Assembly: GCA_038063875.1 (NCBI GenBank)
Contig: JBBTUH010000025.1
Span: forward strand, 1 to 56,254
DNA: 56,254 nucleotides
Direction of reading: 5' to 3'
Source: Patescibacteria group bacterium
GTDB lineage: Bacteria; Patescibacteriota; Microgenomatia; UBA10105; UBA927
The translations under genes and the position numbers were made by a program. Below the pieces are notes generated by a model. It made no database searches. It saw only the letters and a list, made by a program, of their open reading frames with translations, and had not been told where the DNA came from. Within the stretch, counting starts at the first letter, position 1. Each line of letters opens with the position of its first letter. Below, in pieces: positions 4,891 to 21,942 of this stretch.

Positions 4891-5658
4891 TTATTTCATA
4901 ATATTTTTTGCGATATGGTATCCAGTCACTGCTTTTGCAGCGATGGCGTTCCCATATTTAAAATTTGATGAATGCTCAAGCGCGTGGTTTAATTTCTCTT
5001 TCCCCCATGTTACTGCATTGCCTACAAGTGGAACTTGCTCAAAGATACGCACGGACGCTTCTACTGTCACAGGATTGATAAAGTTTTCCATAGGATGTGC
5101 AAGAATTACCCATCCGTTTAACTTTGTGATTGGAGACATTTCTCCTTTTTCATTAGTAATCGGCTTTTTCGAAGTTAAATCTTTTTCAACAAGCCCAAAC
5201 ACCCTACTATTAAGCCATACTTGCGCAATTGCATTCATCCATTCAGAAGCAAATGTTGACGCCTCAGAGGCATACTTCGCGTCTTCAACGCCAGTCGCCT
5301 TACGAAGCCACGAATTCATTAACAAAGAGTATGCGTTATCAGAAACATATTCTTCCGCAAATTTAAAGGCACCAAACGCACCCTTCATTTCCTTAATTTT
5401 TGACTCATTTGTAATTGGATCTTCCTTTAAATCATGCATCCATTTCCCGAAGGTTGCATGTTCTAAATGATGCACCGCATGACTCTCAATCAAATCAACG
5501 GCTAACCCTGCCCCCAATGCTATGGCATTAGCCCCTGCCTTCTCTATGCCCCCAGCTTCACCCTCAATTACTGAAAATTGAACGCCGCGAGGTTTCACAT
5601 CAAATAGTTTTTGATATCGAATTTGCTCTGGAGAAAATGATTGTACTTCTGCTGACAT
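4891..5658 (-). CDS. Hypothetical protein, large paralog family L1
   Basis: RKATG...SEAS and INPVTVEASVRIFEQVPLVG motifs; TGGTATACT -10 box 9 nt before the ATG at 5658. Confidence 0.85.
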   Translation of the reverse strand: MSAEVQSFSPEQIRYQKLFDVKPRGVQFSVIEGEAGGIEKAGANAIALGAGLAVDLIESHAVHHLEHATFGKWMHDLKEDPITNESKIKEMKGAFGAFKFAEEYVSDNAYSLLMNSWLRKATGVEDAKYASEASTFASEWMNAIAQVWLNSRVFGLVEKDLTSKKPITNEKGEMSPITKLNGWVILAHPMENFINPVTVEASVRIFEQVPLVGNAVTWGKEKLNHALEHSSNFKYGNAIAAKAVTGYHIAKNIMK

Positions 5659-5760
5659 AGTTTGGGGAGTATACCACATAAACTATCCTATAGCAAGCGA
5701 CTGTCTTCAGTCGTCCCGAGCGAAGTTGAGAGATCTCTCTATACAATAATGAAGTTATAT

Positions 5761-5810
5761 CCAAGGCTGAGCCTTATTGGGAAATATTTCTAGAAAAGGC
5801 TCAGCCTTGA
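5761..5810. repeat. 50-bp REP-like inverted-repeat element, copy 1
   Basis: caaggctgagcctt...aaggctcagccttg; 46/50 identical to 8418-8467. Confidence 0.85.
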
Positions 5811-5815
5811 AATAC

Positions 5816-6109
5816 TTACTTTGTAGTCAACAGTCCCATTCCCACCACAATCTCTGCAATTGCCTGCTGATTAAGGGTCGCTTCTTCCTCGGTCATACCC
5901 TCAACCATTTCCCCAAGTAACGCCTGCATTTCCTCTTTGCGCTTGGCCATTCGTTTTTCGTATTCACGATCAAATACGTCAATTCCAGCCTCAAGTTTTG
6001 TTTGATCTTCTAAGCTCGCCTCATCAAGCTTCACGAGAAGATCGACCTTCTGTGCATCAGAAAAAAGGCGCGTCGTTTGTATGGTGTTACGAAGCTGCTT
6101 TAAGTTCAT
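5816..6109 (-). CDS. Small acidic helical protein, paralog family S (97 aa)
   Basis: IQTTRLFSDAQK...SLEDQTKLE..ID.FD..Y aligns with 11514-11798; AGGAGG upstream of the ATG at 6109; overlaps the end of the upstream gene. Confidence 0.85.
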   Translation of the reverse strand: MNLKQLRNTIQTTRLFSDAQKVDLLVKLDEASLEDQTKLEAGIDVFDREYEKRMAKRKEEMQALLGEMVEGMTEEEATLNQQAIAEIVVGMGLLTTK

Positions 6110-7190
6110 ATTCCTCCTGTGCCTTTTGGTCAGCACTTTTCCAATTTGATTTTCCGTAGTACACTTTGTCTTTGTTCCCCTGCCACCTACCATCTTTACC
6201 CCGCGAAGTCACGCCGTGCGGGACGAAGTGGGGCATCTCCACTTTCTTTCCCACAATTCCCTTTTCATTTCTCACCTGCCGCACTTCTTTCCAATTCTTT
6301 TTCAATTCTCCAAGTCCACTCCATATCATGTCGACGCCAAGAATAGAGACTGGATTGGATAAATTTAACCCTTTCCGAATAAAATCCTCGATTGGATTTG
6401 CAATAGGCTTATCACCAATATTTTCATATTTTTTAAGCTTATCTTCTATTATCGCTCTTTTTTCCTGAAGTCTTGAGGCCGTTCTTGAAAAATCAGCAGA
6501 TCTATCATTCTCTTTCGATGAACGCGGTTGTTTCGATCCAAGCCAATCTAATTTATCAAATACCTCATCTAATTGCCCTTCATATAGCGCTTTATTTCCC
6601 ATTTTTGCATCATATTGCACTTGTTTTGGTAAATCAGGAGCAAACAATGCTTCTCCTGCATCAATAGCTAACGAAGCGAGTAAATGTTTGGCTTCAGCTT
6701 TTACAAACATTGGCTGAAGTCTAAATCCAAGTATCATATTATAAAATCCGCCGATTGCAAGATCTTGCACCCCTTCTTTTACAAAATACGCAGATCTAGC
6801 CTTCCAATTAAACTTAGAATCTTGTAGCGCAAAATTATTAAGCTTCTCTCCTACGTCTCCACCCATTCTAAATCGCTCAACAAGTTCGCTTTTTCCTTGC
6901 CAAATATTTGTCCAAAGCGCATCAGTTGCTTTTTCCATCCCCGCTCCCACTCCCACATTTACGACACCTCGTGCCGTCCGCATCAGCGCACTGTCCCCAT
7001 CAAACGTATCTTCGGCCATCTTACTTGCAGTATCTATGTCTCGAACAATGTCTGCCAATTTAGTACCGACTTTTTCGACCCACGGTTTTTCTTTCCCTTT
7101 CTCTGAGCCCCTCGCCACACGCTCCGCTATGGGAGGTTGTGCATTGGGTATTGGAGATTGATGTGCCGGTCCTCGTTCATTGTGCACCAT
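6087..7190 (-). CDS. Hypothetical protein, possible divergent L1 member
   Basis: Long ORF with EGVQD..N and LSNPV segments, a central coiled coil and VYYGKS near the C-terminus. Confidence 0.8.
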   Translation of the reverse strand: MVHNERGPAHQSPIPNAQPPIAERVARGSEKGKEKPWVEKVGTKLADIVRDIDTASKMAEDTFDGDSALMRTARGVVNVGVGAGMEKATDALWTNIWQGKSELVERFRMGGDVGEKLNNFALQDSKFNWKARSAYFVKEGVQDLAIGGFYNMILGFRLQPMFVKAEAKHLLASLAIDAGEALFAPDLPKQVQYDAKMGNKALYEGQLDEVFDKLDWLGSKQPRSSKENDRSADFSRTASRLQEKRAIIEDKLKKYENIGDKPIANPIEDFIRKGLNLSNPVSILGVDMIWSGLGELKKNWKEVRQVRNEKGIVGKKVEMPHFVPHGVTSRGKDGRWQGNKDKVYYGKSNWKSADQKAQEEYELKAAS

Positions 7191-7202
7191 ATATGTATTG
7201 CG

Positions 7203-7236
7203 CCCCACGAATCCGCCAACAGGCGAAGAAGTGGTG
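7203..7236. repeat. Nested palindromic element (intergenic)
   Basis: ccccacgaa[tccgccaacaggcgaa]gaagtgg resembles the element at 18781-18815. Confidence 0.6.
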
Positions 7237-7386
7237 CTGCATACTGTGTGAAAGGCAATTTGAATTTCTATGTATGTATCAGAACCGCGCTATCCACTAT
7301 CTACCAGTGTAGATGCTAAAGAAGATAGGGTCAACGCACACCAAGCAATACTTCCTCCAAATCCCCTTAACCTCCTCTAATTTCCC

Positions 7387-7788
7387 TTAAATCGTCAGTA
7401 CCTCTAACCCCTTCACTCGTTTAAAATGCTTTGGATTGCCTGTTACTATAACGGCCCCTGCATTCATGGCCGAAGCGGCAATCAAAATATCCATATCATC
7501 AATTTGCTCCCCTTTTTTTGCTAACTCTGCACAAATATTTCCAGCAATAGCGGCATCTTCTGAGGTAAACGGTAACACCCGTGACAAAGAAGTTAGTAAT
7601 GCATTCATCGCATTTCTCTTTTTTTCAATAATGCGTGCATCGCTTCGCTCAATGCCGCTTGTTAATTCAAAGACACATACCGCACTAGTTATCAACGTTT
7701 CTACTTGATGACGTTGAACAAACGAAGCACTTGGCTCTGTTTTTCGTAACAGATCAATAAGCACCGAGGTATCCAAAAAATATGTCAT
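7387..7788 (-). CDS. vapC: VapC-family PIN domain toxin
   Basis: YFLDTSVLID, FELTSG, DDMDILIAA, TGNPKHF. Confidence 0.92.
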   Translation of the reverse strand: MTYFLDTSVLIDLLRKTEPSASFVQRHQVETLITSAVCVFELTSGIERSDARIIEKKRNAMNALLTSLSRVLPFTSEDAAIAGNICAELAKKGEQIDDMDILIAASAMNAGAVIVTGNPKHFKRVKGLEVLTI

Positions 7789-8042
7789 AGAATAATCCCA
7801 AGATTCTTCTTGTTTTTCCGCTTCAACACTTTCTTCCAAAATGCATCATCATCCAGGTCCGTCCCCTTCCAACCACCAATGGCTTTCATGAGTTGCTGAT
7901 TTTTCACTTCAGGCATAGCTCGGACACTGGCATATGGCCTCCCGTCTCTCGTAAGAATTAACTCATCTATAATAGGAAGCATATCTGCATACATGCCAAA
8001 CTTTCGTATAAAATCACTAATCGGCAATATTTTTATATTCAT
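7785..8042 (-). CDS. Antitoxin (Phd/YefM-like N-terminus)
   Basis: ISDF..K, LILTRDGRPYA; 4-nt overlap with the PIN gene. Confidence 0.75.
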   Translation of the reverse strand: MNIKILPISDFIRKFGMYADMLPIIDELILTRDGRPYASVRAMPEVKNQQLMKAIGGWKGTDLDDDAFWKKVLKRKNKKNLGIIL

Positions 8043-8078
8043 ACCCCTATGCTAGAGCCTTGATATGTATTTTGTCAA

Positions 8079-8118
8079 GTATTAGAATATGTATTAGAAT
8101 ATGTATTAGAATATGTAT
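8079..8118. repeat. 12-bp tandem repeat (gtattagaatat) x3.3
   Basis: Read directly; abuts the TA -35 box (8073-8078) and contains the stop codon of 8106-8408. Confidence 0.9.
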
Positions 8119-8408
8119 ACAAACTTTCCAATCTGCTCTCTCGCTTTGGCGAGTAGCTCTTTTTTCTTTTCTTCCCCCACCCCATCTGTTTCCAATTCAT
8201 ATTCTAAATTTTTATACACCTCTTCCAACTTTTCTCTCAAATACTCCTGCCGAGCGTTCGAATGCTCATCAAACGTCTCAAGTAATGCACTCACTTTCTC
8301 CTTATACTCCTCCGGCAACGCATCAACTACAGCCACCAAATCCCGCTTTTCTTCAGTATTTAGCGCCCGACTATGTTCTACTACTTTTGTAAAATTCCTA
8401 GCTTTCAT
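8106..8408 (-). CDS. Small acidic helical protein, family S (100 aa)
   Basis: VEHSRALNTEEKRDL...LPEE...LETFDE aligns with the other S proteins. Confidence 0.85.
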   Translation of the reverse strand: MKARNFTKVVEHSRALNTEEKRDLVAVVDALPEEYKEKVSALLETFDEHSNARQEYLREKLEEVYKNLEYELETDGVGEEKKKELLAKAREQIGKFVYIF

Positions 8409-8417
8409 ATGTATTTA

Positions 8418-8467
8418 CCAAGGCTAAGCCTTGTTGGGCAATATTTCTAGAAAAGGCTTAGCCTTGA
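8418..8467. repeat. 50-bp REP-like inverted-repeat element, copy 2
   Basis: caaggctaagcctt...aaggcttagccttg. Confidence 0.85.
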
Positions 8468-8544
8468 TCGTATTGTTTATATCATCATGCTAACACGTTA
8501 ATACGCATCTATTTTTAATCAAAAAATGATCTATGTGGATCATT

Positions 8545-9477
8545 CTAAAAACTTGTCGACAGTGACGACGTCCCACTAGCTGGCTTTGTAGTTCCCACCG
8601 GCAAATACCCAAATTTCGTATAAAGCATCCGCGCCACCGTAAGATACGAAAGATACAATCCTCCATCTTGGTTTTTCAATTTATCATTGAGCGCGGTATA
8701 TATCTTTTCAACCCCTGCACCAAAGACAGGGATCGCTGCCATGCTTCGCAGTGATCCTTCGATAAATCCCGGATTTATCATAGAGCTAAATATCTTTCTG
8801 TGCAGTGGCCCACCTGCCGTATTCCACCCACCTATGGCAGTTGCCAGATTCCCCATTTCACTTATCGTATTGGCCAGTTGCGACGGATACCGCACGTCCG
8901 TCTCGTGCGTCAATCCTTTCACCGCCACATTGGCACCATACCCTACTATTTTATCCGCCGCAAATTCCAAACCGTCTCGTAATACATATCTATTCTCATC
9001 GGATAATTCTATAAGTGTTTTTTTAAAAATCGGATCTTTTATTTCTTTTTTTCCATCATGCAAAAATCTATCCACTCCACTATCTGCCACATAATCTATC
9101 GCAAACGAACCGCCTTGGATCAGGCCATTCATAAACACACGGCCCAATCGGTGTGGTACATCTTTCCCACGCCATGCAAAATCCACTTCACGTACCAGTC
9201 GCTTCCAATCTTTGTGCGTTTCAAACGCTTCCCACGGCTTCATTTTTTTCGCAAGTTCCGCGCCGGTGAGAAGTGTCAATTCTCCTTGCACTGCCGCCTG
9301 TTCCCCTATTTCTTGATACAGCACGGGCTCTGCCACATCAAAGACTTCTTTTAAGAATTGCGTATATTTTTTCTCCGAAGGATCTATCTCTTTTTTCGGC
9401 ACCATCGGCACGTAGCGCGCTTCCCCCACGAGAATTTGTTTTCTCCCTATTGCCTGTTGCATCCCTACTTCAGCCAT
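8545..9477 (-). CDS. Hypothetical protein, large paralog family L1
   Basis: EFAADK..N..KGLTH and INPGFIEGSLRSMAAIPVFG motifs; ATG lies 1 nt after the upstream stop. Confidence 0.85.
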   Translation of the reverse strand: MAEVGMQQAIGRKQILVGEARYVPMVPKKEIDPSEKKYTQFLKEVFDVAEPVLYQEIGEQAAVQGELTLLTGAELAKKMKPWEAFETHKDWKRLVREVDFAWRGKDVPHRLGRVFMNGLIQGGSFAIDYVADSGVDRFLHDGKKEIKDPIFKKTLIELSDENRYVLRDGLEFAADKIVGYGANVAVKGLTHETDVRYPSQLANTISEMGNLATAIGGWNTAGGPLHRKIFSSMINPGFIEGSLRSMAAIPVFGAGVEKIYTALNDKLKNQDGGLYLSYLTVARMLYTKFGYLPVGTTKPASGTSSLSTSF

Positions 9478-9478
9478 A

Positions 9479-9766
9479 TTACACGGGTTTTCCAATGCCA
9501 ATATACACTTTATTATCATCTATGGGCATCTCAATCTTCTCTCCCACTATCTCACTCAGCACACTCTCCACTCCTTTTTGTATATCCTCTGGGAATTCCT
9601 CCCGTATTTTTTCTTCGGCGGCTAGAAATGCACCCAGTGCATCAATTTGCTCTTCCGAAAGCCGCGGGAATTCATCGATGATATCCAATTTTTGCTCATA
9701 AGAAAGTAAAATACTGTCTTCTATGAGTATCATCAATGCATTCTGCTTATCTTTCATTGTTTTCAT
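9479..9766 (-). CDS. Small acidic helical protein, family S (95 aa)
   Basis: IEDSILLSYEQKLDII...LSEEQIDAL; C-terminal VYIGIGKP motif. Confidence 0.82.
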   Translation of the reverse strand: MKTMKDKQNALMILIEDSILLSYEQKLDIIDEFPRLSEEQIDALGAFLAAEEKIREEFPEDIQKGVESVLSEIVGEKIEMPIDDNKVYIGIGKPV

Positions 9767-9804
9767 ATTTCCCCAATCTCCCTTAGTTCCCCTATCACCC
9801 CTTC

Positions 9805-11127
9805 TTACGCTGTTGGTGAAAACACCGCAGCCGCCTGTTGTCTCTCCGCAATTTTCCCCAAACCTCGTTTCACTGTATATCCCAATACATCCAACGCCAT
9901 ATCTTTGGATACCATCACACTTTTATATCGATTAATTCCCATCTGCATCACAGCGGGGACCGCATCTATGCCATGTGCACCCAAAAATTCGGCAATACCA
10001 GTCGTATAGCTTATCCAATGTGGCACATCTGGGGTCAAATTAAGCCATCGTTCAAAAAAATTCTTAAATACGATACTTTTAGAGATAGATGCAGTTTTCT
10101 CAATAGCCTTTGGAGCTGCTTTTAACACCCGAGATTCTATTCCTTTCTGGATTATATTTTTTCCAAGCATCCTATCAGCTAAATGAGCATCTAATAATAA
10201 AGTTGTTTTATCTGTCACTTCCTTTGCGGCTGTCTTTGCGGATCGCAAAGCACCTCGATATTTCCATTTATCGACAAGGTTATACCATTTTACATCGTGT
10301 GTTAAACCAGCTTCCGTTAATTTACCTATGTATGCCACCTTTGCACCCAATTCAGCTCGCTTCTGTAACACAGATACACCCCGAACACCCGCCTTTTCCA
10401 TCATATTCTTTGCTAGCAATCTTGTACCCTTTTCTGAGGCCATACTATAATCTTTTGCAAGCGATGCCGCTCCCACATTTTTTACATTAAATGGAGATGT
10501 TACTATGCTGAATATATCTCGAGCTGCAGTTTTGGATCGATACAACAAATCCTTTGCCCACCCCACCTTTGGCATGTTTTTATACACTTCTTCAGCGGCT
10601 TTCAACGCTTCTACACTTCCTTTTACATGCACAATAGCATTTACGGAACGCCCTGAATTAAATGCAGTCTTTGCGTATCGAGCAGCTTTCGACAATCTCA
10701 CTGCTGGCTCAAATTTAATGGCTTTCGATGCGAATGCTGCTGCACTTACATCTTTCCAAGCAAGATCCGCATTTTTTGTTATCCCCAACAGCCCCGTCCC
10801 CAAGCCCTTCCCCTCTCCAATCACCGGAATTAAACTCAGGGCCAGCGAGGCGTTTGCTTTCAACTCTTTAAACATTATTTCTTTTTGCTTTTTTAGATGT
10901 GGCTTGATCGTCTCCCCCATCCCCTTCCAAAATCCCATATCCTCGATACTTCGGGTGACGACGTGTTGAGGACTCATCGCCTCTGCCATCATCCGTTCGC
11001 GGGCCGCCAACACCTTTTCCTGCTGTTCCGGCGCCAACTTTAAAAACTCCGGTAAGTCTTCTAATCGCGTTTGACGCGACATATCCTCCGGCATTGGTTG
11101 TGGTGGTCGTTCTCCCATCTCACTCAT
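9805..11127 (-). CDS. Hypothetical Ala/Lys-rich protein with hydrophobic segments (440 aa)
   Basis: Long ORF; LALSLIPVIGEG segment; TATACT 6 nt before the ATG. Confidence 0.85.
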   Translation of the reverse strand: MSEMGERPPQPMPEDMSRQTRLEDLPEFLKLAPEQQEKVLAARERMMAEAMSPQHVVTRSIEDMGFWKGMGETIKPHLKKQKEIMFKELKANASLALSLIPVIGEGKGLGTGLLGITKNADLAWKDVSAAAFASKAIKFEPAVRLSKAARYAKTAFNSGRSVNAIVHVKGSVEALKAAEEVYKNMPKVGWAKDLLYRSKTAARDIFSIVTSPFNVKNVGAASLAKDYSMASEKGTRLLAKNMMEKAGVRGVSVLQKRAELGAKVAYIGKLTEAGLTHDVKWYNLVDKWKYRGALRSAKTAAKEVTDKTTLLLDAHLADRMLGKNIIQKGIESRVLKAAPKAIEKTASISKSIVFKNFFERWLNLTPDVPHWISYTTGIAEFLGAHGIDAVPAVMQMGINRYKSVMVSKDMALDVLGYTVKRGLGKIAERQQAAAVFSPTA

Positions 11128-11202: not shown

Positions 11203-11513
11203 TAAATCCCCTTATTTCCCCCATTTTCCTTAATCCACCAAGTTTCCTAAATAACTATAACATTCTTTTTTCTACTCTCTTCAAAATGAATACGTTTATT
11301 TCGACCAATATTCCTATGCCATCCGCGATATGTAATTCGTCGTTTTAATTTATCGATAATTTTTGCTTTCATACAAAAAGCATATCACAATTTCCATCGA
11401 ATATTGTATTCCCGCCTGAAGATTTTTCATATCGTTTCTTTTGGGTGAACAAAGAAAGCATGAGCAATGTTACAAATGCAAAAAATATATAAAAATGTTT
11501 ATGAAGCGACAAA

Positions 11514-11798
11514 CTAACTCAATATCCCATCCACTCCCGCTTTTATGGTAGACGCGGCGGTCTCCATTCTCTTTTTCTCTTGAAGCTTAGCCTTACCGAC
11601 TATTTGATCCAGCACCTCATACACAGATTTTTTATATTCAGAAATAGACGCTTTGTATTTCCCATCAAATTCATCAATAATCGTCTCTAAAGCCTTCGTA
11701 TCTTCCTCACTATACGTATCCACAGCCGCTAAGATCGCGATCTTATCTTCATCAGAAAACAGCGCCGTCTCTTTAATTTTTTGCTTTAAATTTTGCAT
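11514..11798 (-). CDS. Small acidic helical protein, family S (94 aa)
   Basis: IKETALFSDEDK...SEEDTKALE.IID.FD..Y. Confidence 0.87.
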   Translation of the reverse strand: MQNLKQKIKETALFSDEDKIAILAAVDTYSEEDTKALETIIDEFDGKYKASISEYKKSVYEVLDQIVGKAKLQEKKRMETAASTIKAGVDGILS

Positions 11799-11801
11799 AT
11801 A

Positions 11802-12401
11802 TTATTTCCCCATCGCCATCATAGATAATCCAGTTCCAATATTTCGAATTGCACCCATAGCTGGCGTACTCAGAAGCGTCGCAGCAACCCACTTGCCACC
11901 TGTGATGAGCAACTTGTTGTTTGGATTTGGTATGTCAGCAATTCCCCATCCAGCAACCATAGACATGATCCAATCAAGTGTTCCGGTTGGAAGTAAATTT
12001 TCCACGGCCGCCCGTTTATTATATGGTTGCCATACTGATTCAAACCCTAACGCTGCACCAAGTTGTCCAGCACCTAAAGCACCTTTGCCTGCACTAGTAA
12101 AAATATTTTCATTACCATGAGTTATGGCTCCGATTGCTCCACCAATCAATGCTCCCTGTATTCCAACACCTACTTCATTTTTTACAGTTTCTTCGAGTCC
12201 GACCTTATATTGCTTTATTCCTGCAGCAACGAGCTTCTTTCCCGCACTTTCACGAGCACCAGCGACTTGCTCTTGAAGCTTTTTCCCACTCTCGTTCATC
12301 ACATCCACGACCTGCTGTTGTTCGGGATTGAGCACAAATTCAGCTGGCTTCGGGGCTTCGGCTTTACCGACGTATTGAGGATGTGAGATATTTTCTGCCA
12401 T
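11802..12401 (-). CDS. Hypothetical glycine-zipper membrane-associated protein (199 aa)
   Basis: GVGIQGALIGGAIGA and GKGALGAGQLGAALG GxxxG runs. Confidence 0.82.
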   Translation of the reverse strand: MAENISHPQYVGKAEAPKPAEFVLNPEQQQVVDVMNESGKKLQEQVAGARESAGKKLVAAGIKQYKVGLEETVKNEVGVGIQGALIGGAIGAITHGNENIFTSAGKGALGAGQLGAALGFESVWQPYNKRAAVENLLPTGTLDWIMSMVAGWGIADIPNPNNKLLITGGKWVAATLLSTPAMGAIRNIGTGLSMMAMGK

Positions 12402-12439: not shown

Positions 12440-12838
12440 CTACTTGAGGAGTCTAAACCCATTCTGCTCGTAGTGATGATCAAAGGAGAAAAATGTTTTA
12501 ATTCCCAAATTTCGTGCGATTACCATGTTCGTACAATCCGTTAAAGATACTTTCTTTGAAGTTTGTTTTAAAAAGAACGTAAATACATCAGCAGCTAATG
12601 TTTCGACCATATATTGAATAATCGTATCAGAAGATTGAAGATTCGCAATAAATGCCCGCGCCATATCCCGACTGTAATAGTAACTCAACTTGGTTGTGAC
12701 CTCATCGACAACCTCCCATGAAGTCACCGTAGACTCATGCGACAACTCTAACATTTTAGCCACACGTAACGCCTTTACCTGATTTGAATCTTCTTTCAAA
12801 TTAAGCGCAAGATACGCATCAGAATCTATAAATATCAT
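12440..12838 (-). CDS. vapC: PIN domain toxin
   Basis: IFIDSDAY, VVDEV, SLTDC, FSFDHHY. Confidence 0.92.
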   Translation of the reverse strand: MIFIDSDAYLALNLKEDSNQVKALRVAKMLELSHESTVTSWEVVDEVTTKLSYYYSRDMARAFIANLQSSDTIIQYMVETLAADVFTFFLKQTSKKVSLTDCTNMVIARNLGIKTFFSFDHHYEQNGFRLLK

Positions 12839-13077
12839 GGAAGTTTATATAAATAATCATCGTTAGTGCTGAAGTCCTTCGGCACCTTCCCCTTATACGC
12901 ATGTTTTGCCATCTCAAGCATCACCTCGGCAGCTGGACGTTTTTTTATGAGTGCAGGAAGATCTTTTGCTAATTTTTGACGCGCTATAGAAGACACGCTC
13001 GTTTTTTGGGCCACAGCCAACGCTCGTAAATTAGCAAGCAATTCTTCTGGAAGCAAAAGCTGTGTTCGTATCATCAT
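12835..13077 (-). CDS. RHH/CopG-type antitoxin
   Basis: MIRTQLLL...SVSSIAR; overlaps the PIN gene; ATACACC x3 (13080-13100) in the promoter. Confidence 0.8.
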   Translation of the reverse strand: MMIRTQLLLPEELLANLRALAVAQKTSVSSIARQKLAKDLPALIKKRPAAEVMLEMAKHAYKGKVPKDFSTNDDYLYKLP

Positions 13078-13246
13078 ATATACACCATACACCATACACC
13101 ACTTTCTGTCAATACAACACAATCTCTAGCCTCCCATAAACTCCTTTAGATTCCTCTAAAATTCTTTAATCTTATAAAGAGTACGTACGTATTCTCGTTG
13201 TTTTCGCTGTGCCCTGCATAGTCTGGCTCAGCCAGACGACGTGGGG

Positions 13247-15673
13247 TTAATTCGGCCTCGCCATCCCCTGAAGCACCTGATGTGGCCCTAATTCTTTCAC
13301 TCGTTCATTTTTCTTATTAAGCTCTGAAAAATCTATCATCTGCTCAGCAATTTTCTCAAACTGTAGATCATGGGTTATGGCTATCACTGTCATCTCCGGC
13401 CTCTTTTTTCGAAGCGAGGAAATAATGTCGATCACCTGTTGCGCGGACCGTTCATCCAAGCTCGCCGTCGGCTCATCCAAAAATAAAATAGAAGGATTCT
13501 GAAGTAACGCCCGCGCAATGCCGATGCGTACCCTTTCACCACCAGAGAGATGTTTATTTTCCGAATCCAACCGTTCAGCCAAATGATCAAGGTTTAAGTC
13601 AGACAATGTTTGTCGTACTTCTTGATCAGGCACATCTCGCCGCACCCACTGCGTGAGATTTTCGCGAAGTGTCAAGCTTTCAAAAAACTTCACATCCTGA
13701 TTCGCATACCCAATTTTCGTAAACAACGACTCATCCCCATATTTTTTTATATTTTCCAAAGGAATCCCACCAATTTTTACGGTATCTTGTGGCAAATCAT
13801 AGAGGTTGAGAAGCGACCGCATAAACGTCGTTTTCCCTATGCCAGACGTCCCCTTTATCGTCACAAATGTGCCTTGCGGGATATCCACAGACACATCAGT
13901 CAAGATATTTTTATAATTAAGATTCGACACAGACAATGAAAAGTCTTTGACGTCACTTACTGGTATGCGCTTGGCTTCCTTCAGCCCTTCCGGCCGATCC
14001 AACTCATCATACGGCCCCAATAGATCCTCCATCTTTTGGATATCGTCGAGCAGAGGCAAAATACGATTTACATAAAGTCCTGTGAGCTGTCCAAATTTAG
14101 CCTCTATCCCTTCTTGTACGCGCTTAGAATCTTGCCATAATGCAAATGACAAAAATCCTTGAGTATATACACCTCGCATCGGATTTAAATAAGCATCTAA
14201 CTGATCAATTAACTCCTTTTTTTCAACTGGCACTGTACGAACTAAAGTATTTTGATTCGTATGATATTTAATAAATTTTTTATCTTCAAATAAATCGCCC
14301 AACGTTCCTATTTTGAGTTTGCCATCCTGCATTATCGAATCAACCTTTTTGTTATCCTGCAAAAACCAACTTTTTGTTTTCGCTAATAACGCTTCGTCTC
14401 GTTTAAATTGTCCAATATCTCCTTTTTTTACATCTCCCATCACAGTTTTCCAAAGCGCAAAAAGCTCAACTACTGCGGGCACTCCAATGTTTAATGCTCT
14501 AAACCATTTTTGCTCTGGCTCTTCTTCACGTAATCCTTGTCGCAACCCACCACTTCGTATGACGTCTTTCATCTCCATTTGCTCGGATAATTTTTGGCTT
14601 GCTGTATCCATCGCAGGAGATGTTTGTATATTTTCAATATTAGAAAGCGTCGTCAACACTTTCGCATTTACCTTATTCCACTGCTCTAGTTCTCTACGAT
14701 TGTCAGCCAATAATTCTTTCGCTTGTCTACGAGACATGTTTATAAGAGGCTTTATCTTGGCGGCACCCAAGGCAAAATCAGGAAGCCCTCTTCCAACGAG
14801 TGTCGCTGGATATGTTCCCATATCAGCCAATAACGGATACAGCTCAAGATGCATTGTGCGATAAAATTCTAGCGTCGCCTTTTTTCCACGCTCAACCGCA
14901 GACAACACTTCGGAAGCTGGAATATCTTGATACTTAGTAAAGCGCCCCATGACGACAGAGTCGCTAACACGTTTATTTATCTTTTCTTGCAAGCCTATGT
15001 ATGCGCGATCAAATAAGCTGGCAGCTCTATTTCGAAGAATTGACATCGGATATTTAAATAAAAATGGCGCCCATACAGGAGAAGTCTTAAGAGCAATAGA
15101 TTTAAAGTCTTTATCTGTTACTTTATTAAATTTTAGTCTTGTAATACCAAGATCCTGCACTTGCTTCCACACGTTTTTTCTAAGTGCTCCCCCTTTAAAG
15201 CTAAAAAAGACGCCCCACAATCCGTCTGTAACATTTCTAAATCCATCATCCAAGCCAAAAATTTTAGCTACTGTATTCCACCCCGCCTTTTCTTGCCCGT
15301 ATGTTTTATCTAAATCTTTAAGCGTTGAGCTTAACCGTCCAAAATCAAACGGATCTACATCGACTTCTTTTCCTTTCAGAGATTCAACTTTTGGAGGTTC
15401 TTCGGGTGTGATGATATCGTGCACTTCTTCCACCCACTTTTTCTCACCCTCAGGCGTTAATATCAGTCCTTCTTTCGCAAAATCTTTGGCTATCGCCTCG
15501 GCTAACTTTTTCTCATGAGACACTGATACATTTCCCTCGGCTATTACATCATTGACCACATCATTTGCCGCCTCCAAAGTCTTTTCGGACACCCGAAACG
15601 CCTCTGTCACTGCATGCAGCTCCGGCCCCTTCACGCGCGTCTTTACTGGCTGTTTGATCGCCTCTGCTCCCAT
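13247..15673 (-). CDS. ABC-exporter-like half transporter with intact ATPase and atypically polar N-terminal domain
   Basis: Walker A GTSGIGKT, Q-loop YANQD, LSGGE, ILFLDEPT, ITHD; TATAAT 6 nt before the ATG at 15673. Confidence 0.88.
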   Translation of the reverse strand: MGAEAIKQPVKTRVKGPELHAVTEAFRVSEKTLEAANDVVNDVIAEGNVSVSHEKKLAEAIAKDFAKEGLILTPEGEKKWVEEVHDIITPEEPPKVESLKGKEVDVDPFDFGRLSSTLKDLDKTYGQEKAGWNTVAKIFGLDDGFRNVTDGLWGVFFSFKGGALRKNVWKQVQDLGITRLKFNKVTDKDFKSIALKTSPVWAPFLFKYPMSILRNRAASLFDRAYIGLQEKINKRVSDSVVMGRFTKYQDIPASEVLSAVERGKKATLEFYRTMHLELYPLLADMGTYPATLVGRGLPDFALGAAKIKPLINMSRRQAKELLADNRRELEQWNKVNAKVLTTLSNIENIQTSPAMDTASQKLSEQMEMKDVIRSGGLRQGLREEEPEQKWFRALNIGVPAVVELFALWKTVMGDVKKGDIGQFKRDEALLAKTKSWFLQDNKKVDSIMQDGKLKIGTLGDLFEDKKFIKYHTNQNTLVRTVPVEKKELIDQLDAYLNPMRGVYTQGFLSFALWQDSKRVQEGIEAKFGQLTGLYVNRILPLLDDIQKMEDLLGPYDELDRPEGLKEAKRIPVSDVKDFSLSVSNLNYKNILTDVSVDIPQGTFVTIKGTSGIGKTTFMRSLLNLYDLPQDTVKIGGIPLENIKKYGDESLFTKIGYANQDVKFFESLTLRENLTQWVRRDVPDQEVRQTLSDLNLDHLAERLDSENKHLSGGERVRIGIARALLQNPSILFLDEPTASLDERSAQQVIDIISSLRKKRPEMTVIAITHDLQFEKIAEQMIDFSELNKKNERVKELGPHQVLQGMARPN

Positions 15674-16234: not shown

Positions 16235-17005
16235 TTACCCTACAATCTTCCCTTCCACCACGTCTGCAGGATTTGGCTTGGTGTAGATCGGGCCTTCGTA
16301 ATGAGGTTGTGCCTCTCGCGCCGCCTGCGCAGCTGCTTGTTCTTTTTGTAAAGCCTGCGCCTGAAGATTTCGTATTTCTTGCCGCGCTCGAAGAAGCTCC
16401 CGCTCAAGCACCACAATTGTCGCACCACTCACAGAGACTTCTTTTTCCAACTGCCTTTTCTCCGCTTTCAACACCACCAACGTATGATCCACATGCTTAT
16501 ATTTCAAGGCCAACTCAATCTGCGCATCTTTCACCGTATCCAATTTTGCTTCTTTCACATGTTCCCCCACCGGACGCTTATTTTCGAGGGTATGCAGAGT
16601 TTTGTCATCAATGACTTGCGCCGGAATATTGATTTCTTTATGAAACTTACTCTTTATCGTTTCAAATAAATTCAACTTCTTCCATTCTCCTGATTTGCGA
16701 TCGTACTTCACTGGTTTGTCTGCCAATTTCCCCCACATATTGAGTTCCTTGGTATACGTTTTTCGCGTCGCAAATTGCACTTTGGTCATGTCACTTTTCT
16801 CGGGAAAACTGTAGTCGCTGATGACTTTATCGCCTTCGTTCACTCTATACACCTCACGATTTGGCTGCCACTCGCCTTTCACTTCGTAGTGGAAATGATT
16901 CTCAGGCTTAGGAATGAGGTCTGCCAACTCCTTTATTTGCAACGGCGTAAACGGCAACTCTTTCATCTTCGGCCGCATCTCGCCCATGGATGGTTTTTCA
17001 GTCAT
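16235..17005 (-). CDS. Hypothetical protein with C-terminal coiled coil (256 aa)
   Basis: Long ORF, heptad-rich C-terminal half, extended -10 6 nt before the ATG. Confidence 0.82.
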   Translation of the reverse strand: MTEKPSMGEMRPKMKELPFTPLQIKELADLIPKPENHFHYEVKGEWQPNREVYRVNEGDKVISDYSFPEKSDMTKVQFATRKTYTKELNMWGKLADKPVKYDRKSGEWKKLNLFETIKSKFHKEINIPAQVIDDKTLHTLENKRPVGEHVKEAKLDTVKDAQIELALKYKHVDHTLVVLKAEKRQLEKEVSVSGATIVVLERELLRARQEIRNLQAQALQKEQAAAQAAREAQPHYEGPIYTKPNPADVVEGKIVG

Positions 17006-17012
17006 GTTCTTA

Positions 17013-17342
17013 TTATATCACCTGTATCCCGTATTTACGGATTTCAGACGCCAATGGATCATATTTATCAGCCAAATCAATTGGGTTATACGGATGCGGT
17101 TCGATATCAAACAACCGGTCATCACGCGCCCGCATCAGTCCCACTCTTTCCGTATGTCTATTATTTCCAAAGGCTGGAGACACCACGCAGACATCGATAT
17201 CACTCCACTGTTTAGCAGTACCTTTGGCTTGTGAGCCAAAAACGATAAGTTGGGTAAACTGCACCCCCTTATCACGAAGCTCTTTTCCATACAAACGAAC
17301 TATGTCTGTAACGTGCGTATTTAAAACTTGTTTTGCAGCCAT
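17013..17342 (-). CDS. Minimal nucleotidyltransferase (MNT) antitoxin
   Basis: FGSQAKG...SDIDV. Confidence 0.9.
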   Translation of the reverse strand: MAAKQVLNTHVTDIVRLYGKELRDKGVQFTQLIVFGSQAKGTAKQWSDIDVCVVSPAFGNNRHTERVGLMRARDDRLFDIEPHPYNPIDLADKYDPLASEIRKYGIQVI

Positions 17343-17707
17343 ACAAAAACCTCCTCACACAACGCCTGCCATTTTTCTCGATATACTTTTTCAGTTACTT
17401 TTTTATAAAAACTTCTCTTGTAATCATCATACCGGGCATCAATACTATATGTAGTTATTTCATTAAGCCAATCTTGTTGAAGTTGAGACAGTGGTATTCC
17501 CGCTTGCTTTGCAAGCTTTAACAGATCATGAGTAAATATAGGAGTATCATCTTTTTTTGAAATTATTCCTTTAAATAGTTTTTCTATCGCTAAATGCCAC
17601 TGAAAAAATGCCCAATCATAATGTTTAGATGTATACGATTCGTTTGCAACTTCACGCGTTTCTACCGCCGAATCAAGCCAATATTTCACGCGCTCTTCAT
17701 TGCTCAT
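17321..17707 (-). CDS. HEPN domain protein
   Basis: WAFF..HLAIEK.FK, THDL..L, ARY. Confidence 0.9.
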   Translation of the reverse strand: MSNEERVKYWLDSAVETREVANESYTSKHYDWAFFQWHLAIEKLFKGIISKKDDTPIFTHDLLKLAKQAGIPLSQLQQDWLNEITTYSIDARYDDYKRSFYKKVTEKVYREKWQALCEEVFVWLQNKF

Positions 17708-17801: not shown

Positions 17802-18737
17802 TCAACTACGTTCACCAGCAATTTTCTTTAAATACTCGCCAAATTTTTCCGTTATCACAAACGCACCGATACCCTTTCCAAGATCAACAATATCCCCCAT
17901 TTTTTTGTCCGTAAACACGGCAAAACCCTTACGCCACCACCCGGGCTTTAAGGCAATATCTTTATCAATCCACGCTACTGATCCGTCTGTATAAGACTTT
18001 ATAAAAAGTGGCTGCCATTGACCATCTGCATTAAGCGCCCTCGTGACAACTGCGTTTGCAATAGCCTCTGCTTGCTGATTATTTAAATCATGACTTCCAA
18101 AAGAGAAATTTAATCCCTTAGGTAAAATATTCTTTACATTGAACTGTTTATCTAACCTATCAAATCCCGCAATCAGCTCCTCTATCTCATCTTTATCAGC
18201 ATTCATCATCACCGTGAACATATTAGGTATTGGGAACTGCTCTGCCCGAGATTTGTTTTCCCCACTGGATAATTTCTTCTCTGGATCAGCTATAGGGGTT
18301 TTCTTGCGTACATTTCTCATTCGTTCACCAATTCTTGTCAAAAAGTCAGCTCCCCCCTGCCCAAATGCCTCTAAGCCTTTTCCAACAAATGGAACTTCAC
18401 CTGTCCATTTCCGAACAGTTTCATTCCCAACTAATAACCCTCCATACGTAATCGTCCCTGTCACCAATGCTGCCGCCCCATAGTTTCCCACCACTTTGAT
18501 CTTGGCAGCAGTAGCAATATCTTTCTCCAGCTTCTCCATCGCCTTCCCTCGATCTTCATCGGACAACGAGGAGTTTATTGCGATCATTTCTTGAATTTCT
18601 TTGGCATGTTTCTCACGCCACACTTCTTCCGCACCCTTGAAGGTAAATGATTTTCGAAGTTTCTCCTTGCCCCACGCCACGAGTGTCCGCTTCTCAGGAG
18701 CCTTCGCCATACCTGTAAACACCACATTCTCTGTCAT
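17802..18737 (-). CDS. Hypothetical protein, family L2 (311 aa), one hydrophobic segment
   Basis: N-terminal VFTGMAKAP; GAAALVTGTITYGGLLVG; paralog of 20004-20939. Confidence 0.85.
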   Translation of the reverse strand: MTENVVFTGMAKAPEKRTLVAWGKEKLRKSFTFKGAEEVWREKHAKEIQEMIAINSSLSDEDRGKAMEKLEKDIATAAKIKVVGNYGAAALVTGTITYGGLLVGNETVRKWTGEVPFVGKGLEAFGQGGADFLTRIGERMRNVRKKTPIADPEKKLSSGENKSRAEQFPIPNMFTVMMNADKDEIEELIAGFDRLDKQFNVKNILPKGLNFSFGSHDLNNQQAEAIANAVVTRALNADGQWQPLFIKSYTDGSVAWIDKDIALKPGWWRKGFAVFTDKKMGDIVDLGKGIGAFVITEKFGEYLKKIAGERS

Positions 18738-18777
18738 ATATTTTTCATTATATCACCCTAATCTCCCTTATCTCCTT

Positions 18778-19428
18778 TTACCTCGCCGAATCCGCCGGCT
18801 GGCGGAGAAGGCGGGCTTCATACTTCAACGCTCCTCTATCCTTATATGTCACCACTTCCCCATTCCCACTTTTCACGAGTTCTTCATTCACCAACGCGCC
18901 CTTCGTACACCCTTTCGGATTTTCTACCAAGCCTTCTTTCGACTGATTATTAGACAAATGCATATAGTCGGCAGGGAGAAACGTCGGTGTGCTTTCACAA
19001 TCCACCCACACCCACGCAAAAATTCGCTGTATTAAGGGTTCGTCTGTAAATAATTTCTTAAATATTTACAGTTACGACCCTTTATGCCGTATCTTCAAAT
19101 AAAAACAAGATTTTTTGATACGGCGTTGTCATCTTGATACCGACTTGCCCGCCGTAGCTTTAGCGAAGGAGGGTCCCTGCGCATTCACCCAGAGTAGCCG
19201 AACCGTCGCACCACTTTTCAGTGTAAACGTATCTCCATCTTCTACAACATCTACGCGTCCAACCACAGGAAACACGTTGGTATTCGTATAATAATTTGCA
19301 GGAGTAATGAGTTTTGCAGGATTCCACCCGAGAGCGATGGCCAAAAGGAGGCCAGGGATCATCACCATGGGGATTCCTAAAGCGAGGAGTCTTTTCCTAT
19401 TCCACAAAAGTTTCTTTTTCTTCTTCAT
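18778..19428 (-). pseudogene. Thermonuclease (SNase-like) pseudogene
   Basis: N-terminal TM, VEDGDTF, VRLL, RIFAWVW, LVNEELVKSG. RYQDD sits in a shifted frame; stops and palindromic insertions in the middle. Confidence 0.8.
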
Positions 19429-19495
19429 ACTCCCACTATATCGCGAATGTTTTTGCGTTAAAAGTTCTCTACCCCGCCACCACTTCGGCTTTCTC

Positions 19496-19717
19496 TCAAG
19501 CTTGAACAAATTCCTCTTTTTCAATCCCGCTTTCGCGCAGTATCGCCAAGAGTGTCCCTTTTTTCAAGTCTTTCAAATGGATGGGAATAACTGCACGTGT
19601 TTGGTGTATCGGATGTTTCATGGTCAAATGACTTCCGACCTGATGATGCGTTACAAATCCGAGTTTCTTAAGTTTTTTTACCACATCACGAGGAGTATAG
19701 CTAGGCAACTTAGGCAT
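19496..19717 (-). CDS. hicA: HicA-family toxin
   Basis: LGF...QVGSH...VIPIH...KGTL..I. Confidence 0.92.
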   Translation of the reverse strand: MPKLPSYTPRDVVKKLKKLGFVTHHQVGSHLTMKHPIHQTRAVIPIHLKDLKKGTLLAILRESGIEKEEFVQA

Positions 19718-19958
19718 ATGCAGCGTGAGGAGAAAGGGTCGATATATCTATCGTTGAGACAAAACTTATATCAGAAGGAGCTGATTCACCGTCTTTTGCG
19801 AGGCTTCCGAGGTACGATTCGATCGCCTCTTTAGCTGCATCGGACGCTGTTTCCACAGATTTACCGTAGGTCACACATCCTTTGAGCGCAGGGATTATAA
19901 CCGTATACCCACCCTCAGGCTCTTTTTGAAATACCGCAGTGTAATGATGGATTTTCAT
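19710..19958 (-). CDS. hicB: HicB-family antitoxin
   Basis: EGGYTVIIPALKGCVTYG...AKEAI. Confidence 0.92.
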   Translation of the reverse strand: MKIHHYTAVFQKEPEGGYTVIIPALKGCVTYGKSVETASDAAKEAIESYLGSLAKDGESAPSDISFVSTIDISTLSPHAAYA

Positions 19959-20003
19959 ACCAGTAGTATAGCATACTACCGTTCTCTACCCCGCCACCAC
20001 TTA

Positions 20004-20939
20004 TTAGGAAAGGTGTTTCCTCATAAGCTCCACCAAAGCCGCCGTTGGTTCTACGGCAAAATTATTGCCTCCTAATTCTCGTACCACAACCAATCCTTTT
20101 TTAGCCAACTCGTCCGCCTCTGGACGAAAACGTCTCGCAGTAGTAATACCCACTCTCACGCCATCTTGTAACTGCCCTGCAGCAACATGGATAGGCGTCC
20201 ATTTACCTTTTTCTTGAGCAAGATCAAACATCGCACCCACAATCTCTTCTGATTCAACATGACCAAACGCACTTTGTAGCGTTTTGTTTAATTTTCCTTG
20301 TAACTCTAGAGCGACAGTAGAATACGGCGCAGCAATATCCATCTTCGCAAGTGGATTATCCGTAAGCTTATTATAAAAATCAGCTAGATCGATGGGGGGG
20401 GGGTATTTTCAACTATTTTTTTACCAACTTTTTTTGCTACTTCTCTTACTGTCCCACCTTGATCAAAAGGCGCTTCTACCGCTTTCTTAAACGTGCTATC
20501 TCGTACGATTTTTGTAGCAACCCAATTCTTCGATTTATCTACTACACTAGCTATTCCACTGCGCTGCTTCTCAACCCACCCTGCAACACCACCTGCTGCA
20601 GCCATAGTCCTCCATCGTTCGCTACCTGCTCTCAAGACATTTTGAAACCGTTCTGATTTAACTCCTTTATATATGAGTACTCCACTAGCTGCGGTAATAA
20701 CAGCATCGTGCGCAACATTTCGACCAATCGACCAACCCACCCTCTCTTGTAACTTTTTCATTGCTTGCTCTCGTTGATCTTGTGTTAATTCACCAGAAAT
20801 TTTCTCTACATTGCGCATTTGCTTTTCTACAACTCCACTCGAAGTATAACGCTCGTGAAAAAAAACGCTTTAGCTTTGATAATACACCTTCTTTAGGCCT
20901 CCCCATCCCCTCAAATACTATTCCACCTGTTTCTGCCAT
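20004..20939 (-). pseudogene. Family L2 paralog broken by two homopolymer frameshifts (T8 at 20858-20865, C10 at 20394-20403)
   Basis: Removing one T and adding one C joins three ORF pieces into one 311-aa frame similar along its length to 17802-18737. Confidence 0.78.
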
Positions 20940-20946
20940 AGTTTTA

Positions 20947-21258
20947 TTAAACATTTTCTTCCGCCAACGCCTTGTCCACTTCACTCAACACTTCATTCAT
21001 CAGTCCCTCAATTTCCTTCAAAGCCTCACCATCTTTGATGGTGTCTTCGATGAGTTTGGCGTAGCTTTCCACCGTTACCCTGCTCTTTGGGTCGGCAGAA
21101 AGAAACTCTAACTGTTCCTTCGGCATGTACTTAAGGAGCACCGGCCACACCGTCGCCTGCAGACCTTCAGAAATCGTTGCATACAGCTCTGCCTTGTCCT
21201 CGTCAGAAAGTTTAGACTGTTCAATACGCGTTACAATTGCTTTTAATTTCTCTTCCAT
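20947..21258 (-). CDS. Small acidic helical protein, possible divergent family S member (103 aa)
   Basis: IEQSKLSDEDKAEL resembles the S-family N-terminus; sits directly downstream of a larger hydrophobic ORF. Confidence 0.8.
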   Translation of the reverse strand: MEEKLKAIVTRIEQSKLSDEDKAELYATISEGLQATVWPVLLKYMPKEQLEFLSADPKSRVTVESYAKLIEDTIKDGEALKEIEGLMNEVLSEVDKALAEENV

Positions 21259-21282
21259 ACTATTCCTTTCCGGCTTATGGCC

Positions 21283-21942
21283 TTATGACTTTCTAAAAAC
21301 GTTCTTTATTTTTTCACCAAATGTTGGCGGTTTTGGTTTTCCGTCAGGATACGCAAATCCCTCAAGAATACCTTTTGTTATCGACCCAACATTTTTCACT
21401 GCGCTTCCTGCGATGACTACTGCTTCTTTGGCCTTATATCCCACTATCTTTTTAGCCATAAACTTTTCTGCTGCCTGTGCTTCATATGTTCGTACTATTC
21501 CAGCTTTTGTCACGACATCTAGGCCTTTAAAAAATCCATAGACGCCGATACTAGTACCGCCAGAAAATGGTATCATTCCAAGCCCTATCGTTTTTCCTAA
21601 CACGCGTCCAGGCCACGTGGCGATTCGAATTGTTGTATCAATAAGTCCAGCGCTTGCATGAACACCCGCGGCAACAAGTGAAGATTTTACTCTGTAAAGC
21701 TTTGTGCTCAACTTGTCTCTGTCTGCTTTTGTCATTTGCCCAATATAGGCATCTGTGGCCATCATCCATTTTTTATAAACAGAGATCCTTAAATTCTTAT
21801 CTTTTACCGATAACTTATCACGCATTTTAGTAAACGCGTCATTCCCCTCCAATACTTTCCGCACCGCCCCACGAGCAGCTTCTACTGCTGGATTTTCATA
21901 TTTCACTTCTTGTGGTGTTGGTTGTTCAGACATTTCACTCAT
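21283..21942 (-). CDS. Hypothetical protein with Gly/Ala-rich hydrophobic region (219 aa)
   Basis: Long ORF; GKTIGLGMIPFSGG; ILEGFAYP near the C-terminus. Confidence 0.83.
   Translation of the reverse strand: MSEMSEQPTPQEVKYENPAVEAARGAVRKVLEGNDAFTKMRDKLSVKDKNLRISVYKKWMMATDAYIGQMTKADRDKLSTKLYRVKSSLVAAGVHASAGLIDTTIRIATWPGRVLGKTIGLGMIPFSGGTSIGVYGFFKGLDVVTKAGIVRTYEAQAAEKFMAKKIVGYKAKEAVVIAGSAVKNVGSITKGILEGFAYPDGKPKPPTFGEKIKNVFRKS

Follow-up and report, generated by a model that had tools for sequence, protein, structure and literature searches.

Several described bacterial systems direct proteins by short peptide signals. The cargo-loading peptides of encapsulins are short and conserved, are joined by a flexible linker to unrelated proteins encoded by neighbouring genes, occur at either terminus and place a small residue amid hydrophobic ones. 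The encapsulation peptides of microcompartments are amphipathic helices of ~18 residues, found at the N or C terminus of diverse enzymes of one locus and set off by poorly conserved linkers. Among the signals read by ATP-binding cassette (ABC) proteins, those of type I secretion are C-terminal, lie in the last 50-60 residues and are uncleaved, and the leaders of PCAT-type exporters are N-terminal, carry a double glycine and are cleaved. In type VII secretion, a YxxxD/E signal is carried by one partner of a helical heterodimer (EsxB, PE proteins). Here we describe a further short terminal peptide, hereafter the tag, in a 56,254-nucleotide stretch of DNA (the window), which is contig JBBTUH010000025.1 (C25) of the Patescibacteria group bacterium assembly GCA_038063875.1 (genome G000; 1.06 Mb in 47 contigs, 94% complete), an uncultured, ultra-small organism of groundwater; homologues in the databases bear the label Candidatus Gottesmanbacteria or Patescibacteria group. 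The tag is real, is new as a sequence motif, is confined to a narrow clade of the Candidate Phyla Radiation (CPR) and extends past the locus in which it was flagged. At least six unrelated families carry it: the ABC exporter-like ATPases, an HExxH protein, a small helical "S" protein and three large helical proteins rich in Gly. They occur in a CPR genus resembling Gottesmanbacteria and in one or more sister genera. We read the peptide as a short linear tag, specific to this clade, that serves for addressing or docking and is recognised by a common partner, an interpretation that holds about half of our confidence.

The tag resembles encapsulin cargo peptides in its shortness, its linker, its unrelated carriers, its occurrence at either terminus and its small residue amid hydrophobic ones, but it differs in sequence, and its carriers include an ABC ATPase and a putative protease. 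The encapsulin shell family (PF04454) had no match in the G000 assembly, which is 94% complete, and the control search matched in 3 of 14 genomes. With microcompartment peptides it shares the terminal position on diverse proteins of a locus, but it spans only ~9 residues and features a Gly/Ala-x-Gly/Ala/Ser core; the microcompartment shell family (PF00936) likewise gave no match in G000, with controls matched in 2 of 14 genomes. The cargo-targeting peptides of these two systems are the closest counterparts, the signals of ABC protein exporters are also close, and the one-signal-per-heterodimer logic of type VII secretion is a third analogue. A record-level literature search found no report of the motif or of the locus.

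The sequence-only reading had listed ten peptides near the termini of otherwise dissimilar proteins of one gene cluster and had proposed that they share a short motif. All ten were found, all on the minus strand, which holds every gene between ~3.5 and 22 kb; the genes and peptides of this region given below lie on that strand. We fetched the neighbourhoods of relatives, grouped their open reading frames (ORFs) into families, most of whose homologues are 24-50% identical, and scored a loose pattern, [VIQ][YFLW][VIYLETQ][GA].[GAS], within 45 residues of the relevant end. The proposal of a shared peptide was borne out for five families, each of which retains it at the same end in orthologues: the 8545 family at the N terminus (17/17 homologues), the 6087 family at the C terminus (12/13), the family of the small protein 9479 at the C terminus (17/20), the 11802 family at the N terminus (3/3) and the ABC family at the C terminus (5/5). 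Eight other families of the locus, scored at either end, gave 1/11, 0/10, 0/17, 0/16, 0/6, 0/12, 0/3 and 2/28 (0-9%), and the G000 proteome background was 23/1005 at N termini and 15/1005 at C termini (1.5-2.3%). The consensus is approximately [HNK]-Q-V-[YFL]-x-[GA]-x-[GAS]-[KR]-[PA], often preceded or followed by a linker rich in Pro and Lys or in Asp and Asn, so that the motif forms a conserved island of ~10 residues or fewer beside a variable linker. When the best-conserved stretch of nine alignment columns was sought objectively within the terminal 50 residues, it proved to be the motif itself in the 8545 and 6087 families.

Three of the carriers are large proteins. The 310-residue protein of gene 8545-9477 (start MAEVG) bears the N-terminal tag ILVGEARYVP (9406-9435). 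Its AlphaFold2 model had a mean predicted local distance difference test (pLDDT) score of 53.8, too poor for a fold search, and residues 1-79 scored below 50. The 199-residue Gly-rich protein of gene 11802-12401 carries QYVGKAEAP (12351-12377) near its N terminus, where V11, G12, A14 and A16 are invariant in all five sequences compared at 35-39% identity. When the 8545 and 11802 families were aligned with hhalign, only an N-terminal module was matched, at 4% probability. In the 373-residue protein of gene 6087-7208 the tag VYYGKS (6147-6164) is located 18 residues before the stop. A counterpart of this last protein was identified in the sister genus (G020), where the gene that follows the tagged small protein ends in ...VRVYTGYGAS plus 10 residues. 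A second 11802-type gene, with the N-terminal sequence DPHFVGSADA and a small partner, occupies C37:187-1264 on a 1.5-kb contig of G000; the genome thus holds at least one further unit of the system.

The 95-residue small helical protein of gene 9479-9766 ends in VYIGIGKPV-stop (9482-9508). V-[YF]-[VI]-G-x-G is present in the last 16 residues of each of its 63 close homologues (extended form, V-[YF]-[VI]-G-x-G-[KR]-[PA]), and in 59 of the 63 the motif lies 3-6 residues from the end. Motif columns of this family contain 3.4-4.3 bits of information against 1.1-2.0 bits for the non-conserved linker. The counterpart in G020 ends in EKVYVGVGKP. An exhaustive profile search with the 9479 protein returned 166 clusters; among the best 150, 135 are small proteins, 24 of which, the closest relatives, were flagged as tagged (one spurious by eye). 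Distant relatives of 65-80 residues end right after the helical domain and lack a tail, which identifies the tail as an add-on to one sub-family of the small protein. As a separate observation, the 9479 domain recurs as 2-7 repeats within giant proteins of 1,000-2,400 residues.

Shared DNA does not account for the shared peptide. A DNA-level repeat was considered as its cause and rejected, as no direct DNA repeat falls on any motif site and codons vary freely: each invariant glycine is encoded by three or four different codons among orthologues, and the Val and Lys codons vary as well. In a related strain represented in DNA run X10, codons 1-30 of gene 8545 contain 14 nucleotide differences but only one residue change, Met25 to Val, just past the motif, and two differences in the tail of the small protein alter only its last residue. 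Judged from these codon patterns, the motif is under selection at the level of the protein rather than of the DNA.

The stop of the tagged small protein gene and the start of gene 8545 are one base apart, and the C-terminal tag of the first and the N-terminal tag of the second are encoded ~25 codons from each other. This arrangement is compatible with an alternative in which tags would bind each other, for example as strands of an intermolecular sheet, and so knit the proteins of the locus together in the absence of any receptor. V-Y-V-G-x-G is indeed a strand-plus-turn sequence, and the same string forms the first strand of the GIY-YIG nucleases of this genome. However, Ala-type forms of the tag (HQVLEAIAKP) look more like helix than strand, and in G020 the tagged small protein precedes a protein tagged at the C terminus and not at the N terminus. 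We therefore consider such tail-to-tail assembly distinctly improbable.

The reading of the motif as an address recognised by a common partner is also consistent with its occurrence beyond the window. Matrix scans of G000, which covered all 314,137 9-mers of the crude proteome, brought up a 346-residue, zincin-like HExxH protein with no Pfam match, encoded on another contig (C14:11053-12093; L081:7054-8094). In the genus, the motif is present in 14/14 distinct ORFs of this family, 3-44 residues from the C terminus, a count that excludes a second copy in G012 (L096), which failed the ORF filter. The database yielded 61 homologues at 28-99% identity, of which 42 fit a strict pattern, and a looser pattern was found in 48 of the 60 examined. 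Their tails are graded, from HQVLEATARP and HQVLVATAKAP through RQMLVAMAKP and NQVLVGSSK to NVMFVGSAKP and DVLFVGSARP, and thereby bridge the Ala-type ABC tail and the Gly-type tail found on the small protein. The suggestion that the peptide ties these genes to one machine stands as far as a real shared peptide goes, but its restriction to this locus was too narrow. Apart from the tag, many HExxH members terminate in another conserved peptide, NGKRPLHSNT-x-R-[IV]-T-F, and a 100-residue neighbour at L086 has the similar HSNTPRITF at its end.

A matrix that drew only on 48 HExxH-family tails ranked, out of the 314,137 9-mers, the ABC tail first, the 8545 N terminus second, the family's own member third and the 17802 N terminus fifth. 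The 11802 tag followed at 139, the fragment at 20939 at 514, the small protein 9479 at 601, 21283 at 790 and 6087 at 836; 4891 (6,343) and 16235 (11,979) ranked far lower. Termini of the locus account for ~0.76% of positions, so by simple arithmetic the chance of two top hits there is ~6e-5. When each family was left out in turn and the matrix was built from relatives only, the omitted G000 instance ranked 16 for 8545, 19 for 9479, 19 for 6087 and 52 for 11802; in these scans the ABC tail ranked 742 and the 16235 tail 23,512. In the reverse direction, a 12-mer matrix made from ABC tails placed the HExxH tail second at 25.8 bits, against an ordinary background of ~13 bits. From these comparisons we conclude that the instances probably form one motif class with Ala-rich and Gly-rich poles, the case for a common reading of both poles resting on the bridging variants. 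Further G000 hits of the matrix scans were set aside upon inspection: a LemA-like protein (C13:27154), a membrane protein (C4:20454), a protein of a glycosyltransferase region (C2:75096), HsdR (C18:771) and two GIY-YIG proteins (C3:623 and C15:539), all judged to be fold-intrinsic or membrane segments.

That a zincin-like family belongs to this network could also mean that the motif is a processing site, at which a dedicated enzyme (with the tagged HExxH protein as one candidate) would cut or modify the proteins to mature or activate them. Like protease sites, the motif has small residues at two set positions (G/A-x-G/A/S). However, cleavage 3-6 residues from the C terminus or 7-25 residues from the N terminus would free only a tiny peptide, and a maturation signal that may lie at one end or the other would be unusual; we regard this explanation as highly improbable.

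The ABC exporter-like ATPase (gene 13247-15673; Pfam ABC_tran) comprises an N-terminal extension, a helical domain resembling a transmembrane domain and a nucleotide-binding domain, and ends in VLQGMARPN-stop (13250-13276). Most relatives end in DHQVLEAIAKP, and 18 of 19 end in [HG]Q[VI][LY]E[AG]. The AlphaFold2 model had a pLDDT of 73.7, and residues 790-808, which include the tail, scored below 50; as for residues 1-79 of the 8545 protein, this agrees with the expectation that the tags lie on low-structure tails. The first half of the tail (L-G-P-H-Q-V-L) aligns with H-G-T-H-Q-Q-L of ABCB1, the G-T-H-x-x-L-L end of the domain, and a phmmer search against solved structures aligned NERVKELGPHQVL of the ABC protein with NGRVKEHGTHQQL of ABCB1. 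The conservation of the tail thus has two possible causes, the ABCB domain end or the tag. The protein stops 7-9 residues past this ABCB-like element, where ABCB domains continue as a helix, and the element is not peculiar to ABC domains, the same 12-mer being kept in 14/14 ORFs of the HExxH protein. Given the early stop, the low-confidence tail and the 12-mer in a non-ABC family, we kept the ABC tail as a member, as the sequence-only reading had placed it, and it is possibly the source of the motif.

The other listed peptides differ from those above. VFTGMAKAP (18696-18722), at the N terminus of the 311-residue protein of gene 17802-18737, is lineage-specific and present in one of 10 family members; VFEGMGRP (20895-20918), also lineage-specific, is encoded by the 5' piece of a paralogue of that gene that is broken by a frameshift. 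Both are confined to G000 and one relative, which starts with MAETGNQVFEGSSA, and the other eight members of the 17802 family begin M-x-E-[IA]-G-M-S... and lack the motif. The paralogue (20384-20939) is split ~27 codons in, at a T run, into pieces 20790-20939 and 20384-20818, which may reflect a pseudogene or a mistake in the assembly. ILEGFAYP (21346-21369), near the C terminus of the protein of gene 21283-21942 and followed by a Pro/Lys linker, is a variant tag of the class I-[LF]-x-G-G-E seen in four related proteins; relatives of 21283 carry KILHGGER, NIFKGGEP and KILQGGER, 12-17 residues from the end. VVEGKIVG-stop (gene 16235-17005; peptide 16238-16261) is kept in 4/4 orthologues, but its sequence is different and its ranks in the matrix scans were low, and VIEGEAGG (gene 4891-5658; peptide 5548-5571) was found in 0/10 homologues, the aligned orthologues lacking the peptide; neither is a member. 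Of the ten instances listed, three to four are not conserved members.

Several points weigh against a shared tag with a common reader. All the counts come from a single genus with one or two sisters and so are phylogenetically dependent. In G000 alone, the motif is not significant. An unbiased seed search over the ends of 15 locus proteins, compared with 400 random 15-protein sets, failed to recover the motif; the statistic was reached by 111, 51 and 68 of the 400 sets for k = 3, 4 and 5, and the top motif, L-S-x-E-E-K of five small proteins, was equalled by 51 of them. The pattern as first written, hh-x-G-x-[AG]-x-P, fits four of the ten peptides and not the other six. It matched three of 1,131 C-terminal positions of locus ORFs against 18 of 318,155 in the rest of the crude proteome (the fourth match lies in a 49-codon ORF outside the gene list used), an enrichment that proves little because the pattern came from the same sequences. 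The leave-one-out test is weakened by instance registers chosen by eye. With short matrices, false hits that are intrinsic to a fold score about as highly (LemA, GIY-YIG nucleases and helicase motif VI of HsdR), and the ABC-tail 12-mer matrix gave the HsdR helicase motif 23.5 bits. The phmmer alignment implies that the ABC tail, in its first half, is simply how an ABCB-type nucleotide-binding domain normally ends. Given the ranks of 601, 836 and 139 that the HExxH-only matrix assigned to 9479, 6087 and 11802, the Ala-type and Gly-type forms may be two tags. Finally, we infer both that the tag is bound by any partner and that a single partner serves all copies.

Pressed furthest, these points would favour the view that the peptides have no common function and are chance or convergent strand-turn elements, each kept for reasons internal to its protein, as the G-T-H-x-x-L end would be in the ABC ATPase. 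The alignment with ABCB1, the negative search in this genome, the false positives and the failed instances all suit this view. Against it stand the mutual recovery of the ABC and HExxH tails by matrices built from either family, the variable-length linkers that set the motif apart from the domains at 3-44 residues from the end, and the low pLDDT of the modelled tails. On balance, a complete absence of common function appears quite improbable to us.

The reading of the peptide as a docking tag draws instead on the combination of features: a short and conserved sequence, a variable linker, a disordered tail, occurrence at either end and unrelated folds (an ABC exporter fold, an HExxH family and a small helical domain) together point to a short linear motif bound by a partner domain. 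The tag would sit on a disordered N- or C-terminal tail and be bound by one common partner, which would bring the tagged proteins to the same place or complex.

The ABC ATPase is one possible partner. All 17 genomes of the genus have full-length relatives, as do two further genera (G020 and G029), with one to three tandem ABC paralogues in mid-locus. Of the 17 genomes of the genus, 16 yielded tail-bearing small proteins, as did G020, and each of these also has this special ABC protein, and three genomes with tail-less relatives of the small protein (G039, G053 and G056) contain generic ABC matches only; as only two genera are involved, this co-occurrence is not independent evidence. Foldseek matched the model to type IV exporters (CmABCB1, McjD, Atm1, PCAT1 and MsbA) at E ~1e-16 over ~700 columns, and the ESM Atlas agrees. 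These include exporters of peptides and proteins, and the tagged proteins themselves lack membrane segments and hydrophobic signal peptides (hydropathy over 19 residues peaks below 1.5, as for the orphan proteins of the locus in general). Accordingly, the tag could be an export signal by which substrates, alone or paired with chaperones, are singled out for the ABC ATPases of the locus, with export in one step from a single-membrane bacterium.

This locus shares with systems read by ABC exporters the nearby type IV-fold protein and cargo that lacks Sec signal peptides, but it departs from them in several respects. The confinement of type I secretion signals to the C terminus does not hold here, where the tag is N-terminal in the 8545, 11802 and 17802 families. 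Despite the ABC fold, no C39 peptidase, membrane-fusion (HlyD-type) or outer-channel (TolC-type) family was identified among 28 locus proteins (Pfam, E <= 0.01). In contrast to PCAT exporters, the ABC protein has no C39 domain: its Pfam matches are to nucleotide-binding-domain families only, and the N-terminal 110 residues of the model are helices and low-confidence loops. The motif reads G-x-G/A/S rather than adjacent glycines. Both the ABC protein itself and the HExxH enzyme bear the tag. The helical domain is strikingly hydrophilic, with a maximum 19-residue hydropathy of 1.06-1.79 across 23 family members, against 2.44 and four clear segments for an ordinary exporter of the same genome (C23:32169-34028); the protein may not be an ordinary integral membrane transporter. 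We consider an export signal unlikely. A broader form of the docking-tag reading, which we also put forward with little confidence, is a protein-addressing system in which a hydrophilic ABCB-type ATPase or an unseen hub would read the tag and gather or export heterodimeric large and small units together with a tagged zincin-like protease.

The units just mentioned follow from gene order. Large and small genes are paired along the locus, and the tag is on one partner of each pair. The large partner carries it in the 11802, 8545 and 6087 pairs, and likewise, as the variant tag, in the 21283 pair; the corresponding small proteins are untagged, being the S-type helical proteins of 94 residues downstream of 11802 (11514-11798; motif in 0/12 homologues), 100 residues downstream of 8545 (8106-8408; 0/16), ~96 residues downstream of 6087 (5816-6106; 0/17) and 103 residues downstream of 21283-21942 (20947-21258; 2/28). 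In the 9805 pair, the small partner (9479) bears the tag and the large one, a 440-residue protein immediately upstream (9805-11127), does not (0/6 homologues). In the HExxH pair the tag is on the large partner, and the 184-residue protein upstream begins with an L-S/T-E-E-D-R element, as the small proteins do. The five small proteins (5816-6106, 8106-8408, 9479-9766, 11514-11798 and 20947-21258) have in common an N-terminal L-[SF]-x-E-[EDQ]-K. One tag per larger protein with a helical partner of ~100 residues encoded side by side is reminiscent of type VII secretion, but the motif is different, and no FtsK/EssC-type ATPase or WXG100 family was found by Pfam among the 28 locus proteins. In relatives the gene order runs 11802-type, small, one to three ABC, 9805-type, tagged small, 8545-type, small, 6087-type, small, 4891-type and 3547-type.

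Most proteins of the locus match no Pfam family. Of the 28 scanned ORFs, 20 had no Pfam family at E <= 0.01, and the remaining matches were to the ABC ATPase and to inserted toxin-antitoxin families (PIN twice, RHH, HEPN with nucleotidyltransferase, HicA/HicB). The orphan genes are of two kinds, large Gly-rich helical proteins and five small acidic helical proteins of ~95-103 residues. NCBIfam, searched with 14 locus proteins, gave only ABC-domain models and a weak GatB-like match (E 0.0036). PADLOC anti-phage defence models left 15 of 16 proteins unmatched, the ABC protein hitting ATPase-domain models only. For the 440-residue 9805-11127 protein the best ESM Atlas score was 0.80, which is at noise level. 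A search for related loci returned eight, too few for a gene-context statistic.

Other features of the region were recorded alongside. Toxin-antitoxin pairs (PIN with antitoxin three times, HEPN with nucleotidyltransferase, HicA/HicB) interrupt the G000 locus at 7387-8042, 12440-13122, 17013-17707, 19496-19958 and 22088-22785 on the minus strand; they are absent from the relatives' listed loci, where the locus genes adjoin. A second shared terminal feature is the start M-[AST]-E, found in 6/22 locus ORFs against 15/1,007 elsewhere (Fisher p ~2e-6, with crude ORF starts), namely 8545, 9805, 11802, 16235, 17802 and 21283, as well as 20939 (MAET). An internal motif near the C terminus, [VI]-P-[VLF]-[IVF]-G-x-[GA]-V-E, is common to the proteins of 8545-9477, 4891-5658, 3547-4740 and 17802-18737 in the forms IPVFGAGVEK, VPLVGNAVTW, VPVIGALVEQ and VPFVGKGLEA, and its P250 and G253 are invariant across 26 sequences of the 8545/4891 family. 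Three intergenic repeats were identified. Two are families of purine-rich leaders just upstream of minus-strand genes, one at 4818-4850, 7358-7390 and 13127-13169 and the other at 9765-9790, 11212-11237 and 18750-18775; the third is a 50-nucleotide palindromic, terminator-like element with two copies 92% identical (5761-5810 and 8418-8467). An aquifer metatranscriptome run (X16) contained three contigs at least 99% identical to 10572-10725, 11780-12241 and 12658-12879; they span no motif site and DNA carry-over is possible, so that they give only a weak hint that the locus is transcribed.

Most CPR genes have no known function, and a shared conserved tag offers a handle on such dark matter. 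It tells which proteins belong together, genes on other contigs included, and supplies a concrete bait for a common partner. If the addressing system is as outlined, ultra-small CPR bacteria would have a new route of protein sorting, by which helical proteins rich in Gly might reach a host cell or the cell surface. If the ABC ATPases read the tag, a new export or assembly signal would be defined; even if they do not, the tag joins several structural proteins to an ATPase and a putative protease in one testable network.

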